Shown piece after piece: positions 8,351-15,241 of a DNA stretch of 58,520 bases. Both the position numbers and the translations under genes were made by a program. The stretch comes from Anaerolineae bacterium. GTDB lineage: Bacteria; Chloroflexota; Anaerolineae; JACIWR01. A model generated the notes under the pieces. That model saw only the letters and a list, made by a program, of their open reading frames with translations. It had not been told where the DNA came from and made no database searches. Location of the stretch: NCBI GenBank assembly GCA_024653325.1, contig JANLFX010000009.1, forward strand, positions 1 to 58,520, in the 5' to 3' direction. Every line of letters begins with the position of its first letter. The first letter of the stretch is position 1.

Positions 8351-9268
8351 TTATTCAGGACGGGTGCCGATTAATCCAGCGCCGGCTGCCAGGTCCTGCA
8401 TCTCCCGGGTGATAGCTTGTTTGCGAGCTGTCTGTACCACTAACATCAACTCGGTGACAAGCCGCTTGGCATTCTGGGTGGCTCCTTCCAGCAGTTGGAA
8501 ACGGGCCGAATGTTCTGCCGCTGCCGAGTCTAGCAGGAGACTGTACAGGCTGGCTGAGATCCACTGCTCTATAAGGCGGGTGTATAGACTTACCGGATCG
8601 GTTTCGATAATTGGGGGTGGCCAGAGCTCGGAGGACGAGTTGCCAGCTTGTTCTGTAGCAGGCAGTGCTGGTGGGATCAGGCGCACCACCGTCGGGATGT
8701 AGCGCACCGTTCCGCGATAGGCATTGTAGACCAGGTCTACCGCGTCCAAATCGTGTGCCTGGTAGCGGGCCAGCCATTGGCGGGTTAGACTGAGAGCCAG
8801 GCGATAGTCCGGCAACGCCATCATTGATAGCGTACCCGACCAGCGCAATGGCTGCCGGCGTCGGTGGAAGATGCGGCTGACCCGCGTGCCCAAGACCATC
8901 AGCTCTACCTGGGCACCGGCTGGTAATTCCGCCAGATGCCGCTCGGCACACCCGACGACAGCCGTATTGAATGTCCCACACAACCCGCGTTCGCTCCCGA
9001 TCACCAACACCACAATACGCTCAGGAGATGGAGGCATTTTTTGCCTGGGCTCCTGGTCAGGCAATAACTCCCGATGCGACGTGAGTCGGATGTGGGGCCA
9101 CAATGCCGGCAGCATGTCCTCCAGCCTGGTGGCGTAGCGATGCGCGTCGTCTCGTTTACGGAGAGCCATCCGCCAGCTTCCCAATGAAATAGTTCGCAGG
9201 GCGCTGAGGATAGGTTGTACAGAGCGAATGTTGTCTAGACGGGCCTGAGCTCGCTTCCAGTCTTCCAT
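8351..9268 (-). CDS. atpG: N-ATPase F1 gamma subunit
   Basis: GSERGLCGTFN, AEHSARFQLLEGATQNA, ARKQAITREM. Confidence 0.93.
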   Translation of the reverse strand: MEDWKRAQARLDNIRSVQPILSALRTISLGSWRMALRKRDDAHRYATRLEDMLPALWPHIRLTSHRELLPDQEPRQKMPPSPERIVVLVIGSERGLCGTFNTAVVGCAERHLAELPAGAQVELMVLGTRVSRIFHRRRQPLRWSGTLSMMALPDYRLALSLTRQWLARYQAHDLDAVDLVYNAYRGTVRYIPTVVRLIPPALPATEQAGNSSSELWPPPIIETDPVSLYTRLIEQWISASLYSLLLDSAAAEHSARFQLLEGATQNAKRLVTELMLVVQTARKQAITREMQDLAAGAGLIGTRPE

Positions 9269-9271
9269 GAT

Positions 9272-9595
9272 TTACACTTCGTAGATTTCGAAGCGCTCCA
9301 GGTCCCAGACGAACACGGCCGCCCCCCCGACCTCGGCGGTTGACGCTGCGGCGAGGGACAACTGCTTCTCACTCTCGGCGGTTTCTAATTCAATACAAGA
9401 GCGGCAGCTTGTGCGAATGATGGATAGCACCTGCTCTAGATGTGCTTTTTCTACGGCGATGAAAAGTGTTTGTTGAGCCTGGCGCAAAGCGCCTCCCCGG
9501 CTATCACTGAAGGTCGCTGTGTATCCGGCGGCTACCAGAGCTTCTATGACGTGCCCCGCCTCATCCCGGGGCACTACGGCCATCACCATCTTCAT
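9272..9595 (-). CDS. PII-like protein of the PstA/DarA (c-di-AMP receptor, YaaQ/DUF970) family
   Basis: MKMVMAVV...ATxxxxxGGALR...T(L)FIAV...C...EVGGAAVFVW is colinear with PstA/DarA (MKMIIAIV...ATKLATTGGFLR...EVGGATVFV); ATGA overlap with the atpA stop. Confidence 0.85.
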   Translation of the reverse strand: MKMVMAVVPRDEAGHVIEALVAAGYTATFSDSRGGALRQAQQTLFIAVEKAHLEQVLSIIRTSCRSCIELETAESEKQLSLAAASTAEVGGAAVFVWDLERFEIYEV

Positions 9596-11250
9596 CCGAC
9601 TTTACCTCCTGACCAAGTTGCATGATACTCGGCCAACATGGCCAGCAGAATTTCCCGCGTTTTTTCATCCAACTCGCCACTGCGATCAATGTGGTGATAT
9701 AGTCCTGGATGCTCGGCCTGGAAACGGGATAATAGTCCACGTTCGAAGGCTGGTACGTCTTCCGGCGGGATGTCGTCCAGAAATCCCTCGATAGCTGCCA
9801 GCAGGATGATAACCTGCGCCGCTATGGATAGGGGTTGCTGGGGTGGTTGCTTGAGCACGGTTCGTAACCGTTCTCCACGCCGGATCTGACGTTGAGTAGC
9901 CTCGTCCACTTCGGTGCCAAAACGGGCGAAGCGGGCCACTTCCTCAAATTGGGCCAGTTCCAGACGCAGATGACGAGCCACAGCACGCATGGCCGCCGTC
10001 TGTGCTGCTCCGCCCACGCGCGATACCGACTGACCTACGTTTATAGCCGGTTTGATGCCCCGGTTGAACAACTCGGTATCGAGGACAATTTGCCCATCGG
10101 TGATGGAGATCAAATTGGTGGGGATGTAGGCGGCGATATTACCGCGCTGAGTCTCGACAATTGGCAACGCCGTCAGTGAACCATTCCCGGCCTCAGGGCT
10201 CAATTTGCAAGCCCGTTCTAATAACCGGGCGTGCAGGTAAAAAACGTCGCCAGGGTAGGCCTCGCGGCCCGGTGGCCGACGCAACAACAGGCTCAGTTCC
10301 CGGTAGGTGTCGGCGTGTTTAGAAAGATCATCATAGACGATCAGTACGTCATGTCCATCGTATACCAGGCCTTCGGCCATGGTACAGCCGGCATAGGGAG
10401 CCAGGTAACGCAGCGCGGGTGGGTCGTCAGGACTGGACACGACTACGATAGTGTATACCAGGGCGTTGTGCCGGCGCAGTGTTTCGATAACGGTCAGCGT
10501 GGACGATTTCTTCTGCCCGATGGCTACATAGACGCACAGCACGCCACTGCCGCGCTGATTGATAATGGCATCTATGGCTATACTCGTCTTGCCAGTTTGC
10601 CGATCGCCGATGATCAATTCGCGCTGTCCCCGGCCAATAGGTACCAGGGCGTCCACTATTTTCAGCCCAGTGTGCAGCGGTTCATGTACCGGCGCCCGCT
10701 CGATAATGCCAGGAGCGTCGCGTTCCAGGTAACGGAAATCAGCGGCATCAATGGGTCCGCGACCATCCAAAGGCTGGCCCAGAGGGTTTACTACTCGCCC
10801 CGGTAGATTGTGTCCCACCGGAACGCGTAGCCGTTCGCCACTGGCCGTCACCAGGTCCCCGCCCTGGATACCTTCGTCGGGGCCCAGGAGGATCACGTCA
10901 ATCAAATCGTGATCCAGATTCAGAATCATGCCCTGTACACCGGTGGGGAAAACAACTAGTTCGTCGGTACGCGCGCCAGGCAAGCCAGAAAGCGTGGCCA
11001 CGCCATCACCGACGCGCTGCACCGTCCCCACATCGTGAAAACGCACCTGGGCCACCAGTTGACTGGCCTGTTCGCGCAGAAGCTGGAGCAGCAGCGGAAT
11101 ATTGGGTTGTACTGGGAGGATTTTTAAATGCGAGGCCGCATCGTCGCTGAGACGTTGCACCAGGCCAGCTCGATCAACCCGTTGATCCGTCTGCTGGCGG
11201 AGCGCCTGCCGCGGCAAGGTGGTATCAGGCTGAGGGATCGGTTTGTCCAT
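9592..11250 (-). CDS. atpA: N-ATPase F1 alpha subunit with N-terminal extension
   Basis: GDGVA, IGRGQRELIIGDRQTGKT, RPPGREAYPGDVFYLHARLLER, PAINVGQSVSRVGG. Start set at ATG 11250 after AAGGAG. Confidence 0.96.
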   Translation of the reverse strand: MDKPIPQPDTTLPRQALRQQTDQRVDRAGLVQRLSDDAASHLKILPVQPNIPLLLQLLREQASQLVAQVRFHDVGTVQRVGDGVATLSGLPGARTDELVVFPTGVQGMILNLDHDLIDVILLGPDEGIQGGDLVTASGERLRVPVGHNLPGRVVNPLGQPLDGRGPIDAADFRYLERDAPGIIERAPVHEPLHTGLKIVDALVPIGRGQRELIIGDRQTGKTSIAIDAIINQRGSGVLCVYVAIGQKKSSTLTVIETLRRHNALVYTIVVVSSPDDPPALRYLAPYAGCTMAEGLVYDGHDVLIVYDDLSKHADTYRELSLLLRRPPGREAYPGDVFYLHARLLERACKLSPEAGNGSLTALPIVETQRGNIAAYIPTNLISITDGQIVLDTELFNRGIKPAINVGQSVSRVGGAAQTAAMRAVARHLRLELAQFEEVARFARFGTEVDEATQRQIRRGERLRTVLKQPPQQPLSIAAQVIILLAAIEGFLDDIPPEDVPAFERGLLSRFQAEHPGLYHHIDRSGELDEKTREILLAMLAEYHATWSGGKVG

Positions 11251-13527: not shown

Positions 13528-13557
13528 CGCTCTGAACCTCTGAACCTCCCGCAGGCT

Positions 13558-13833
13558 TTAAACCTGCGGGAGGTTGGCCAGGCCACTGGTGAGGATCGTC
13601 ACTCCACCCCGGTCCACCTGCAGAATGCCCGCCTCCAGGTTGAGCACGTGCTCTCCCGTTTCGTCGGCATAACGCAAGGGCGCACTGACCGTCTCGCCCA
13701 GCAGTGGTGCATGGCCGGGCCAGATACTGATCCCGCTACCGTCAGCCAGTTGGGCTTGCACCCATTTTACTTCTTTCACCTCGACCAAAGTCTCAGCCGG
13801 GGTCAAAACTGCCAGGCGCAATGGTTTAATCAC
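13558..13833 (-). CDS. atpC: Epsilon subunit, N-terminal beta-sandwich only (91 aa)
   Basis: LAVLTP...[11 protein letters not shown]...AGILQV...VTILT. GTG start overlaps the atpD end, RBS GGAGGG. Confidence 0.85.
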
Positions 13834-15241
13834 CGGTTGTTCCCTCCGTGGACCACTGTCTGGCTTTCTCCACTGCCTCGTCAATCGTGCCCACCATGTA
13901 GAAAGCCTGCTCCGGCAGATCATCGTGCCGGCCTTCTATGATCTCGCGGAAGCCGCGCAGTGTCTCGGACAGGGGTACGTAACGTCCGGCCATGCCGGTG
14001 AACGGTTCGGCGACAAAGAACGGTTGAGTGAGAAAGCGCTGTACCCGCCGGGCGCGGTTTACCACCACCCGGTCCTCGTCGCTCAGTTCCTCGATACCCA
14101 GGATAGCAATCACGTCTTGCAGTTCCTGATAACGGGCCAACAGCGAGCGTACTTTCTCGGCGATGGTGTAGTGTTCCTCTCCCACACTGACTGGGTTGAG
14201 TAAGGTACTGCTGGATTCCAGCGGGTCAATGGCCGGATACAGGCCCATACTGGCCTGGCGGCGCGAGAGGACTGTAGCCGCGTCCAGGTGAGCGAAAGTG
14301 ACCACCACGGCCGGGTCCGTCAGGTCATCGGCGGGAACATACACGGCCTGGATCGAGGTCACACTGCCCTGGCCGGTGGTGGTGATACGTTCCTGGAGTT
14401 CGCCCATCTCGGTGTCTAACGTAGGCTGGTAGCCCACTGCGCTGGGCAGGCGGCCCAGCAGGGCCGACACCTCGGCGCCAGCCTGGATGTAACGGAAGAT
14501 ATTGTCCATAAACAGCAACACTGGCCGGCGTTCGTGGTCCCGGAAGTATTCAGCCATGGTCAGGGCGGTGAGGGGCACGCGCAACCTAGCTCCCGGCGGC
14601 TCGTTCATCTGGCCAAAGACCAGGATGGTGCTATCCAGCACGCCGCTGCGCTTCATTTCCAGCCATAGCTCATTGCCTTCGCGGCTGCGCTCACCCACAC
14701 CAACAAAAAGAGCTATACCGGAATGTTCGCGGATGGTGTGGCGGATCAGCTCAATGATGAGCATCGTCTTGCCCACCCCCGCCCCCCCGAACAGCCCAAT
14801 TTTGCCGCCACGGGGGTAAGGTGTCAGCAAATCAATGGCCTTGATGCCGGTGATGAATGGCTCTACCACTACCCGTTGCTCTACCAGAGGCGGCGACTTG
14901 ATGTGAATCGGGCGCAGGTCGGTTCCCTCGATGGGGGGTAGTCCGTCAATGGGCTGGCCAAACACGTTGAACATGCGTCCCAACGAGGCCCGTCCCACCG
15001 GCACGCGAATGGGCTGGTCCGTGTCGAGGACCGGCAGGCCACGGCGCAGCCCCGCTGTGCTGTTCATGGCTATACCGCGCACGGTACGGGGATCCACGTG
15101 TTCCTGCACCTCGATAACCAGCTCCGGCCCGTCGTCGCGCTGCACGATCAGCGCGTTGTGAATGCTGGGCAGGTCGCCTGAGGCGAATTCCGCGTCTACC
15201 ACTACACCAGCTACCCTGGTAACCACTCCTGTTCTGGCCAA
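13826..15241 (-). CDS. atpD: N-ATPase F1 beta subunit
   Basis: [54 protein letters not shown]. Confidence 0.98.

Follow-up and report, generated by a model that had tools for sequence, protein, structure and literature searches.

The window analyzed here, positions 1 to 58,520 of contig JANLFX010000009.1 of an Anaerolineae bacterium (assembly GCA_024653325.1), contains an operon for an N-type-like rotary ATPase in which an open reading frame (ORF) of 107 amino acids (aa) lies between the genes for the alpha and gamma subunits. The product was identified as a PII-like protein of the PstA/DarA family, named after receptors of cyclic di-AMP (c-di-AMP). The same arrangement was found to recur across related genomes, and a second ATPase lineage carries another member of the family at a different position. 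From the gene arrangement and conservation, there appears to be an even chance that the protein is a dedicated ligand-gated regulator or accessory subunit of a Na+ pump.

By the ORF list and the sequence, the whole operon lies on the minus strand and runs beta, epsilon, AtpQ, an ORF at the AtpR position, a, c, b/delta, alpha, the 107-aa ORF, and gamma. This order, with the extra ORF at 9272-9595, had been put forward in an initial reading of the letters and their ORFs (the sequence-only reading) and was confirmed by the ORF list, the sequence, and Pfam, AtpR being matched only below threshold. The overlap with the alpha stop codon and the end 3 bp before gamma that were claimed for the ORF were likewise found in the sequence: at the junction ...GGAGGTAAAGTCGG-ATGA..., the ATG of the 107-aa ORF shares TGA with the alpha stop, and the ORF ends with TAA, followed by ATC and then by the ATG of gamma. 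A GGAGG stands 9 nt upstream of its own ATG; on the strength of this and the ATGA overlap, the ORF is apparently translationally coupled to alpha. A scan of positions 7700-15700 returned six promoter-like sites (2.5 in shuffled sequences) and three terminator-like sites (6.7 in shuffled sequences); none was located between alpha, the 107-aa ORF, and gamma, and no conclusion was drawn from this. At the gathering thresholds of Rfam, the sole match over the window was a tRNA (5786-5859, minus strand), with no c-di-AMP riboswitch, and an Rfam E-value scan of 15100-16000 returned no RNA element. A search for sequencing runs yielded no RNA data set covering 8351-11400.

The 107-aa ORF was matched by the Pfam family CdAMP_rec (PF06153) with an E value of 6e-17 and 62.2 bits against a cut-off of 27, residues 1-103 aligning to profile positions 1-107 of 109. 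With the NCBIfam DarA equivalog model (NF058593), it scored 65.2 bits, far under the cut-off of 140, and orthology to DarA was not assigned. No match to the canonical PII family (PF00543) was obtained at an E value of 0.01, and PII chains matched at 0.16 or worse; of the two Pfam families considered in the sequence-only reading, CdAMP_rec was thus recovered and P-II was not. An AlphaFold2 model (42 homologues; mean predicted local distance difference test score, 75.7) displayed a beta-alpha-beta-beta-alpha-beta core; the T'-loop was short and the B'-loop long, residues 67-88 being disordered. In a fold search with this model, the best entries of the Protein Data Bank (PDB) were PstA of Listeria monocytogenes and Staphylococcus aureus (4rww, 4d3h, 4wk1) and DarA of Bacillus subtilis (4rle), with template modeling scores of about 0.7; classical PII proteins came next, and the NrtBCD-PII complex (PDB 8wm7) also appeared in the list. 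By its CdAMP_rec score and PstA/DarA-like model, the 107-aa protein is a PII-like protein of the PstA/DarA family, as had been claimed, and it is presumably a trimer. A complex prediction for alpha (552 aa) with three copies of the ORF product, each with its own alignment, gave a score of 0.02 (mark, 0.32) and spoke neither for nor against binding.

In the protein database, 172 relatives of the ORF were found; the 120 clusters listed were 55 to 100% identical and nearly all about 106 aa long, and among the listed relatives, all named ones came from Chloroflexota or Anaerolineae. The nearest clusters in the ESM Atlas were all CdAMP_rec, one of them labeled “commonest Bacillota,” which was taken as a lead only. 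In the protein tree, the operon proteins of this kind, termed type 1, formed a single clade with 100/100 support on a long branch.

To survey the surroundings of such genes, one genome per species was scanned, and the best 80 of the 148 stretches encoding a relative were examined; these 80 loci represent 79 genome records (two loci in one metagenome-assembled genome [MAG]). Alpha was found directly upstream of the PII-like gene in 79/80 loci, the remaining locus beginning at a contig end, and gamma was found directly downstream in 70/80. A second alpha and then gamma followed in three loci, a second alpha and then the contig end in one, and the contig end itself in three. The ATGA overlap with alpha was present in 45/79 loci, and the frame of the PII-like gene was intact in all 80 where the contig allowed it to be followed. 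Hence, the recurrence of the arrangement, which the sequence-only reading had left to be surveyed, was borne out at a level well above chance, and the arrangement is not unique to this genome. In a set of 41 relatives, a hit of 44 to 77% identity was carried by five genomes, which represent four families in addition to that of the window; every hit of ≥44% identity was flanked by alpha and gamma or stood at the start of a contig with gamma next, and the other 24 loci fetched (hits of ≤41% identity) had no ATPase neighbors. The operons of the alpha clade in this set comprised six with the PII-like gene, one without it, and one cut inside alpha. In even samples, type 1 was present in 16/201 genomes of the class and 7/301 of the phylum, and one of these seven, with 8% contamination, lies outside the class. 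A search of plasmids for CdAMP_rec returned eight records, all of Bacillota type; judged by feature names, none was seen beside an ATPase, and the one region opened was the tmk-darA region of B. subtilis.

Ratios of nonsynonymous to synonymous substitution rates (dN/dS) for the PII-like ORF ranged from 0.07 to 0.22 over 15 distinct pairs (loci L005 and L035 being identical), similar to the ranges for gamma (0.12 to 0.31) and c (0.05 to 0.20), the ratios being rough in that dS was often >1 and thus saturated. Values for alpha and beta were set aside, as many pairs were near or >1, an artefact of segments with an in-frame stop upstream of the true start and shifted codon threading; where beta was absent from the locus, the “beta” segment was a cross-hit to alpha. 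With dN/dS not near 1, purifying selection acts on the PII-like gene. For 38 loci and the window, distances between pairs of PII-like proteins correlated with those of alpha (r, 0.75), beta (0.71), gamma (0.66), a (0.61), and c (0.28), and partial correlations were highest with alpha and beta. This exploratory comparison shows co-inheritance with the operon and hints weakly at a link to the F1 sector; it is no evidence of contact.

The putative ligand pocket was compared in a three-way alignment of 30 type 1, 28 canonical Anaerolineae DarA, and 3 type 2 sequences, the last being those of the second lineage described below. According to two studies of PstA (PMC4316997, PMC4475381), the consensus of the PstA/DarA family is TKLxxxGGFLxxGNTT, and c-di-AMP is contacted by Phe36, which stacks on one adenine, by Thr28 and Gly47, which bind the other adenine, by Asn41, which contacts a ribose, and by Arg26 through a cation-pi interaction. 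The same studies report no saturable c-di-AMP binding for the mutants T28A and GGFL-to-AAAA, dissociation constants (Kd) for N41A of 9.6 µM in S. aureus PstA (wild type, 0.37 µM) and 140 µM in L. monocytogenes PstA, and a Kd of 7 µM for F36A. Thr28, GGFL, and Asn41 were kept in 28/28 canonical Anaerolineae DarA sequences. Type 1 kept Thr28 in 30/30 members and retained Gly34-Gly35, the GGA stretch, and the Phe corresponding to PstA Phe99. Phe36 was kept in 0/30, position 36 being Met in 17, Val in 11, and Ala in 2 and never aromatic, and Asn41 was also kept in 0/30 (Gln, 27; Glu, 2; Trp, 1). Arg26 was replaced by Thr in 22/30 and Gly47 by Ala in 27/30, while Gly40, Asp12, and Arg67 were mostly replaced, with loss of the Asp12-Arg67 pair. 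Type 1 instead displayed a near-invariant T'-loop motif of its own, T26-A-T28-F-[TS]-[DE]-S-R-G-G-[MVA]36-L-R-Q-A-Q41, in which R33, G35, R38, Q39, and Q41 were near-invariant; Cys64 and Trp97 were also common to the relatives.

Because Phe36 and Asn41, both contacts demonstrated by PstA mutagenesis, are replaced in 30/30 type 1 proteins, c-di-AMP is doubtful as the type 1 ligand. The c-di-AMP regulation proposed in the sequence-only reading is therefore doubtful for the window copy, which also falls well under the DarA equivalog cut-off, and type 1 probably does not bind c-di-AMP as its ligand in canonical fashion. The pocket and T'-loop nevertheless form the best-conserved region of the type 1 protein, a pattern that speaks for a binding site kept but altered in its specificity or affinity, and not for loss of function.

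A second N-order operon was found in a related genome (G002). It ends with alpha and gamma, and 23 nt further on follows a 108-aa CdAMP_rec gene scoring 110 bits. This arrangement, type 2, was present in 3/201 genomes of the class (L151, L155, and L156) from two families, each with the order alpha, gamma, PII-like gene. The type 2 protein kept Arg26, Thr28, GGFL, and Asn41 in 3/3 sequences, and the G002 copy also kept Asp12 and Arg67. In the protein tree, type 2 was placed across the type 1 branch, among canonical DarA sequences; in the alpha tree, its alpha was sister to the canonical F-type alphas (98/87), and the type 1 alphas fell in another clade. As both the alpha and the PII-like protein of type 2 belong to clades other than those of type 1, a second, independent capture of a DarA-family gene is suggested. 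Two ATPase lineages with two DarA-family genes at two positions would constitute the strongest argument for a functional link. Type 2 should respond to c-di-AMP, and such a response would fit the known control of ion and osmolyte transport by this nucleotide.

The source genome (Chloroflexota, class Anaerolineae; 211 contigs; 93.7% complete) encodes a second, canonical CdAMP_rec protein on another contig (C75). This gene scored 131.7 bits and directly follows the thymidylate kinase gene, making it the housekeeping tmk-darA copy; the same tmk-darA neighborhood is found in B. subtilis, with the order tmk-darA-yaaR-holB. Since the genome has this separate copy, the operon copy is an added paralogue. 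One DAC-domain cyclase was found in the genome, so that the c-di-AMP synthase looked for after the sequence-only reading is encoded. A V/A-type ATPase is represented on contig C159 by A, B, and c genes (c in a 159-aa frame), and no canonical F-type operon was found in this 93.7%-complete genome. A fifth, weaker ATP-synt_ab match (99 bits) was located on contig C127.

As defined in PMC2881411, N-ATPases are characterized by the gene order atpDCQRBEFAG, by AtpQ and AtpR, by the absence of delta, by a long b with a delta-like end, by a c subunit with Glu in helix 1 and ESTxxY in helix 2, and by their presence beside a typical F- or A-type ATPase; AtpR, the hallmark gene product, has three membrane helices, two of them with Arg. 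The order atpD-C-Q-R-B-E-F-A-G is kept in the window, plus one gene between A and G. No separate delta gene was found in the window operon by the ORF list and Pfam. The c motif (E and ESTAIY) is the same as that of the N-ATPase c of PCC 7002; in related loci, the helix-1 Glu of c was present in 70/71 and E[ST]TxxY in 66/71. The ORF at the AtpR position, with Arg within its hydrophobic stretches, scored below threshold both with AtpR (PF12966; 17.5 bits, cut-off 26) and with PF03899 (22.7 bits, cut-off 25.1), and TIGR03165 had no match in the window. With the NCBIfam models for alternate F1F0 subunits (alpha, beta, a, b, c, gamma, and epsilon), every score remained below the cut-off, and higher scores were obtained with the standard models for atpA and atpD. 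The window alpha shared approximately 52 to 56% identity with N-ATPase alphas of Picosynechococcus and with F-type alphas of Bacillota alike. In the alpha tree, rooted on a long beta outgroup and including three classical N-ATPase alphas (PCC 7002, Azospirillum, and Methylocystis), type 1 grouped with the Anaerolineae operon that lacks the PII-like gene (100/98), and a 97/92 branch parted it from the three classical enzymes.

In the N-ATPase operons of PCC 7002, Azospirillum, and Methylocystis, gamma directly follows alpha. In the Acaryochloris plasmid operon, a cation:proton antiporter is inserted between atpQ and atpR; alpha is unannotated there and was matched in three pieces, and the annotation of the operon contains no PII-like gene. 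Gene insertions in cyanobacterial N-ATPase operons are listed in PMC2881411, and a two-gene insertion is reported for Cyanothece. The N-type Na+-ATPase of the sequence-only reading thus stood as regards gene order, AtpQ, the missing delta gene, and the c signature, and did not stand as regards the alternate F1F0 scores and the alpha-tree grouping. From these sequence features, the window ATPase is considered N-type-like with a predicted Na+-type c and was not filed as a member of the N-ATPase family.

According to the favored explanation, the PII-like gene has become a constant member of the operon in one lineage of Anaerolineae rotary ATPases, and its product would act as a trimeric sensor, made in step with alpha and gamma. 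The trimer would dock on the soluble F1-like sector of an ATP-hydrolyzing, Na+-pumping rotary ATPase and, depending on a small ligand of the adenine-nucleotide type bound in its intersubunit clefts, would switch the ATP-driven pumping of Na+, much as other PII-type trimers gate membrane transport complexes. Type 1 would probably sense another ligand, or else c-di-AMP at an altered affinity. That the protein forms trimers and binds the ATPase is inferred, as are the direction in which it controls the enzyme and the nature of its ligand. Support is drawn from the 79/80 synteny, the dN/dS values, the type 1 clade with its own motif, the second capture, the tracking of distances, and the housekeeping paralogue, and the presence of PII bound to a transport complex among solved structures, as in NrtBCD-PII, was also counted in its favor. 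A broader proposition is offered tentatively, as possible rather than probable: that proteins of the DarA/PstA family regulate rotary ion-pumping ATPases as nucleotide-gated subunits and were captured twice into ATPase operons by Anaerolineae, one form keeping the c-di-AMP site and the other having a new ligand site.

Several observations weigh against a dedicated regulator or subunit. No gamma was found within approximately 6 kb of the PII-like gene in 3/80 loci. In the genome of locus L113, the sole gamma lies approximately 8 kb downstream on the same strand, past genes for a LacI-type regulator and a sugar ABC transporter; that 2.7-Mb genome would then have no F-type enzyme besides that of the L113 operon. 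In the related operon of genome G018 (alpha 62% identical), which lacks the PII-like gene, gamma follows alpha after 12 nt; the protein is thus not strictly required by the enzyme. In the loci compared, which included the operon without the gene (L152), no alpha or epsilon feature was found that accompanied its presence. Finally, operon membership can also reflect co-regulation without binding.

That the protein is a true c-di-AMP receptor, binding as PstA and DarA do and tying the pump to c-di-AMP levels, would be consistent with the CdAMP_rec score, the PstA-like fold, the retained Thr28, Gly34-Gly35, GGA stretch, and Phe99 equivalent, the DAC-domain cyclase of the genome, the complete set of contacts in type 2, and the control of ion and osmolyte transport by c-di-AMP stated in a 2023 review. 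It is nevertheless considered somewhat unlikely, given the type 1 replacements at Phe36, Asn41, Arg26, and Gly47 and the lost Asp12-Arg67 pair, set against the uniform retention of GGFL and Asn41 in canonical Anaerolineae DarA; moreover, the corresponding PstA mutants weaken or abolish binding according to PMC4316997 and PMC4475381, the DarA equivalog score is low, and no c-di-AMP riboswitch was found in the window. An unlikely alternative, though one with precedent in the canonical DarA gene, which sits next to tmk and not beside its target, is that of a co-expressed signal protein that answers the same stress as the pump and acts on another transporter or enzyme without touching the ATPase. 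This would agree with the related operon that works without the gene and with the displacement of gamma at loci where the PII-like gene stays with alpha; however, a place between two F1 genes with an ATGA overlap, kept with alpha in nearly all loci over many families, is unusual for a merely co-regulated gene, and a second lineage appears to have captured a DarA gene independently.

The replaced ligand contacts could also point to a structural protein or assembly factor that is blind to ligands, such as one that caps the alpha3beta3 crown or an F1 chaperone in an enzyme without the delta N-terminal domain. The OSCP match of the b/delta fusion is confined to the C-terminal part, alpha is N-terminally extended, and coupling to alpha would fit three copies per complex. 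This explanation is regarded as quite unlikely: the pocket and T'-loop are the most conserved region, which fits a retained binding site, and the operon that lacks the gene shares both the alpha extension and the b/delta fusion. A functionless insertion, decaying or selfish, has only the absence of the gene from classical N-ATPase operons in its favor. It is contradicted by the selection and conservation data, namely, the low dN/dS, at least 120 homologue clusters with strongly conserved motifs, and the frame intact in all 80 loci where the contig allowed it to be followed, and is hardly credible.

The coordinates and family matches of the operon genes and their neighbors are compiled in Table 1.

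Table 1. Genes of the ATPase operon and flanking ORFs in the window, with the type 2 gene of a related genome
Feature	Position	Strand	Evidence and remarks
F1 gamma	8351..9268	-	PF00231, 165 bits
107-aa PII-like protein, CdAMP_rec (PstA/DarA) family, type 1 clade	9272..9595	-	Pfam, NCBIfam, fold, tree, synteny
F1 alpha, from Met43	9592..11250	-	PRK13343, 703 bits; alt_F1F0 alpha, 632 bits, under cut-off of 750.5
Long b with delta-like C-terminal domain	11225..12025	-	PF00430, residues 8-123; PF00213 (OSCP), residues 181-248
Fo c, predicted Na+-type signature (Glu in helix 1, ESTAIY in helix 2)	12035..12307	-	PF00137
Fo a	12340..13014	-	PF00119, 151 bits
Hydrophobic ORF at AtpR position, 88 aa from Met84 of listed 171-aa ORF	12983..13249	-	Sub-threshold family matches
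AtpQ (ATPase_gene1), membrane protein	13255..13527	-	PF09527, 59.7 bits, cut-off 26.6
Epsilon	13558..13923	-	PF02823, 38.9 bits, residues 35-112
F1 beta, first operon gene	13826..15241	-	PF00006, 235.9 bits; TIGR01039 atpD, 720 bits; alt_F1F0 beta, 626 bits, under cut-off of 752
NFACT/RqcH-type protein	6049-7758	+	
79-aa ORF just downstream of gamma	7822-8061		No Pfam match
148-aa ORF directly upstream of beta, first parts of an MscS-type mechanosensitive channel only	15459-15905	-	PF21088; PF00924, positions 2-39 of 68; in-frame stops after ORF; looks truncated
Gamma and beta subunits of 2-oxoacid:ferredoxin oxidoreductase	15926-17244	-	
Type 2 PII-like gene, L151 (G002:C181)	4646-4972	-	Operon beta, AtpQ, a, c, b, alpha, gamma, then CdAMP_rec gene

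The alpha frame is open up to 11376, Met43 at 11250 being the likely start. In an alignment of 30 orthologues, the N-terminal extension of alpha, approximately 50 residues long, was found to contain two similar helix-like consensus motifs, PDVxxLLRxLREQA and PxxxxLLQxLRxxA. A link of this extension to the PII-like gene was considered and rejected, the extension being present also in L152. The OSCP match of the b ORF covers profile positions 103-171, and its best NCBIfam family was alt_F1F0_F0_B, at 108 bits and under its cut-off. The epsilon ORF as listed overlaps the end of beta; the beta-sandwich match begins at residue 35, and the true start is probably near 13833. Counted from the start of the sandwich, the window epsilon has 87 aa, most of the C-terminal part being missing, whereas the median over 51 loci (L152 and 50 related type 1 loci) is 124 aa. 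A role of the PII-like protein as a substitute for the missing epsilon C-terminal domain was rejected on the basis of this median.

A few loci of the survey depart from the usual arrangement. Gamma is not adjacent in L113, L080, and L095. Two alpha genes accompany the PII-like gene in L038, L040, L050, and L085 (alpha-PII-alpha-gamma) and in L064 (alpha-alpha-PII-gamma). The complete pairs, in L040, L064, and L085, are 76 to 85% identical, both copies with an intact GDRQTGKT P-loop, and in L038 and L050 a copy is cut by the contig end; such paired genes may reflect a mixed alpha composition. One MAG (G001) has two type 1 copies on two contigs (L034 and L102), 77% and 84% identical to the window copy and one of them cut by the contig end, which may represent two operons or a strain mixture. 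In L089, a second beta-a-c set (8574-11848; beta 65% identical) lies approximately 1.3 kb past the gamma of the type 1 operon, giving two N-order operons in tandem; no close type 2 protein was found in that genome, the best match being 47% identical over 64 residues. Locus L106 is labeled Methanosarcinales, with a coverage of 0.26, and may be mis-binned. Tandem CdAMP_rec-like matches were observed at G014:C1:2843091-2843613, G037:C101:5108-5638, G490:C78:27897-28418, G038:C111, and G039:C87; in several of these pairs, one match spans only the first ~64 to 76 query residues.

Compared with PstA and DarA of Bacillota, the 107-aa protein shares the Pfam family, the fold, the short T'-loop, the long B'-loop, Thr28, the Gly-Gly turn, GGA, and the Phe99 equivalent. 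It differs in its separate long-branch clade, its replaced pocket residues (Phe36, Asn41, Arg26, Gly47, Asp12, and Arg67), its score under the DarA equivalog cut-off, and its place inside an ATPase operon, whereas DarA is encoded beside tmk. With canonical PII regulators, a different family for which there is no PF00543 match, it would have in common, as far as genes and model indicate, a small trimeric ferredoxin-fold sensor gated by adenine nucleotides and often encoded next to its transporter. PII-type regulators of membrane transport include GlnK, acting on AmtB, and SbtB, acting on SbtA; no rotary ATPase was found as a PII target in the literature searched. Hydrolysis by F-type ATPases is inhibited by the epsilon C-terminal domain, IF1, the zeta subunit, and AtpTheta, the same role as the one proposed here. 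To our knowledge, these have folds unrelated to the PII-like protein, are not ligand-sensing trimers, and are not encoded between atpA and atpG.

The N-ATPases of Dibrova, Galperin, and Mulkidjanian (2010) share with the window operon the gene order, AtpQ, the lack of a delta gene, the long b with a delta-like end, the c signature (Glu in both helices and ESTxxY), and the co-occurrence with another rotary ATPase, here of the V/A type. The window differs from them by the PII-like gene between atpA and atpG, the sub-threshold AtpR, the alternate F1F0 scores under the cut-offs, and its own alpha clade. In the full-text literature searched, which does not cover subscription journals, no paper was found in which c-di-AMP, DarA, or PII-like proteins are connected to N-ATPase or ATP synthase, or Anaerolineae to N-ATPase. 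No description of the coupling was thus found, in agreement with the sequence-only reading: PII-type gating of transport complexes is known, and a DarA-family gene fixed in a rotary ATPase operon is, as far as we have seen, undescribed.

In the 2023 review, the partner of DarA/PstA is given as unidentified. The finding of at least 79 genome records with a family member embedded in a rotary ATPase operon, together with a canonical-like copy in a second lineage, provides a concrete candidate partner for these receptors. If the proposed function is true, ATPases or ion pumps may be the kind of target on which the orphan c-di-AMP receptor DarA/PstA acts, Na+ extrusion would be directly under second-messenger control, and a ligand-sensing trimer would be a new kind of rotary-ATPase regulator. 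A large, undescribed Chloroflexota branch of N-order, Na+-type enzymes would also be marked out. As a paired natural experiment, with one clade that has the c-di-AMP contacts and one that does not, the two types could show how a PII-like pocket changes its ligand.

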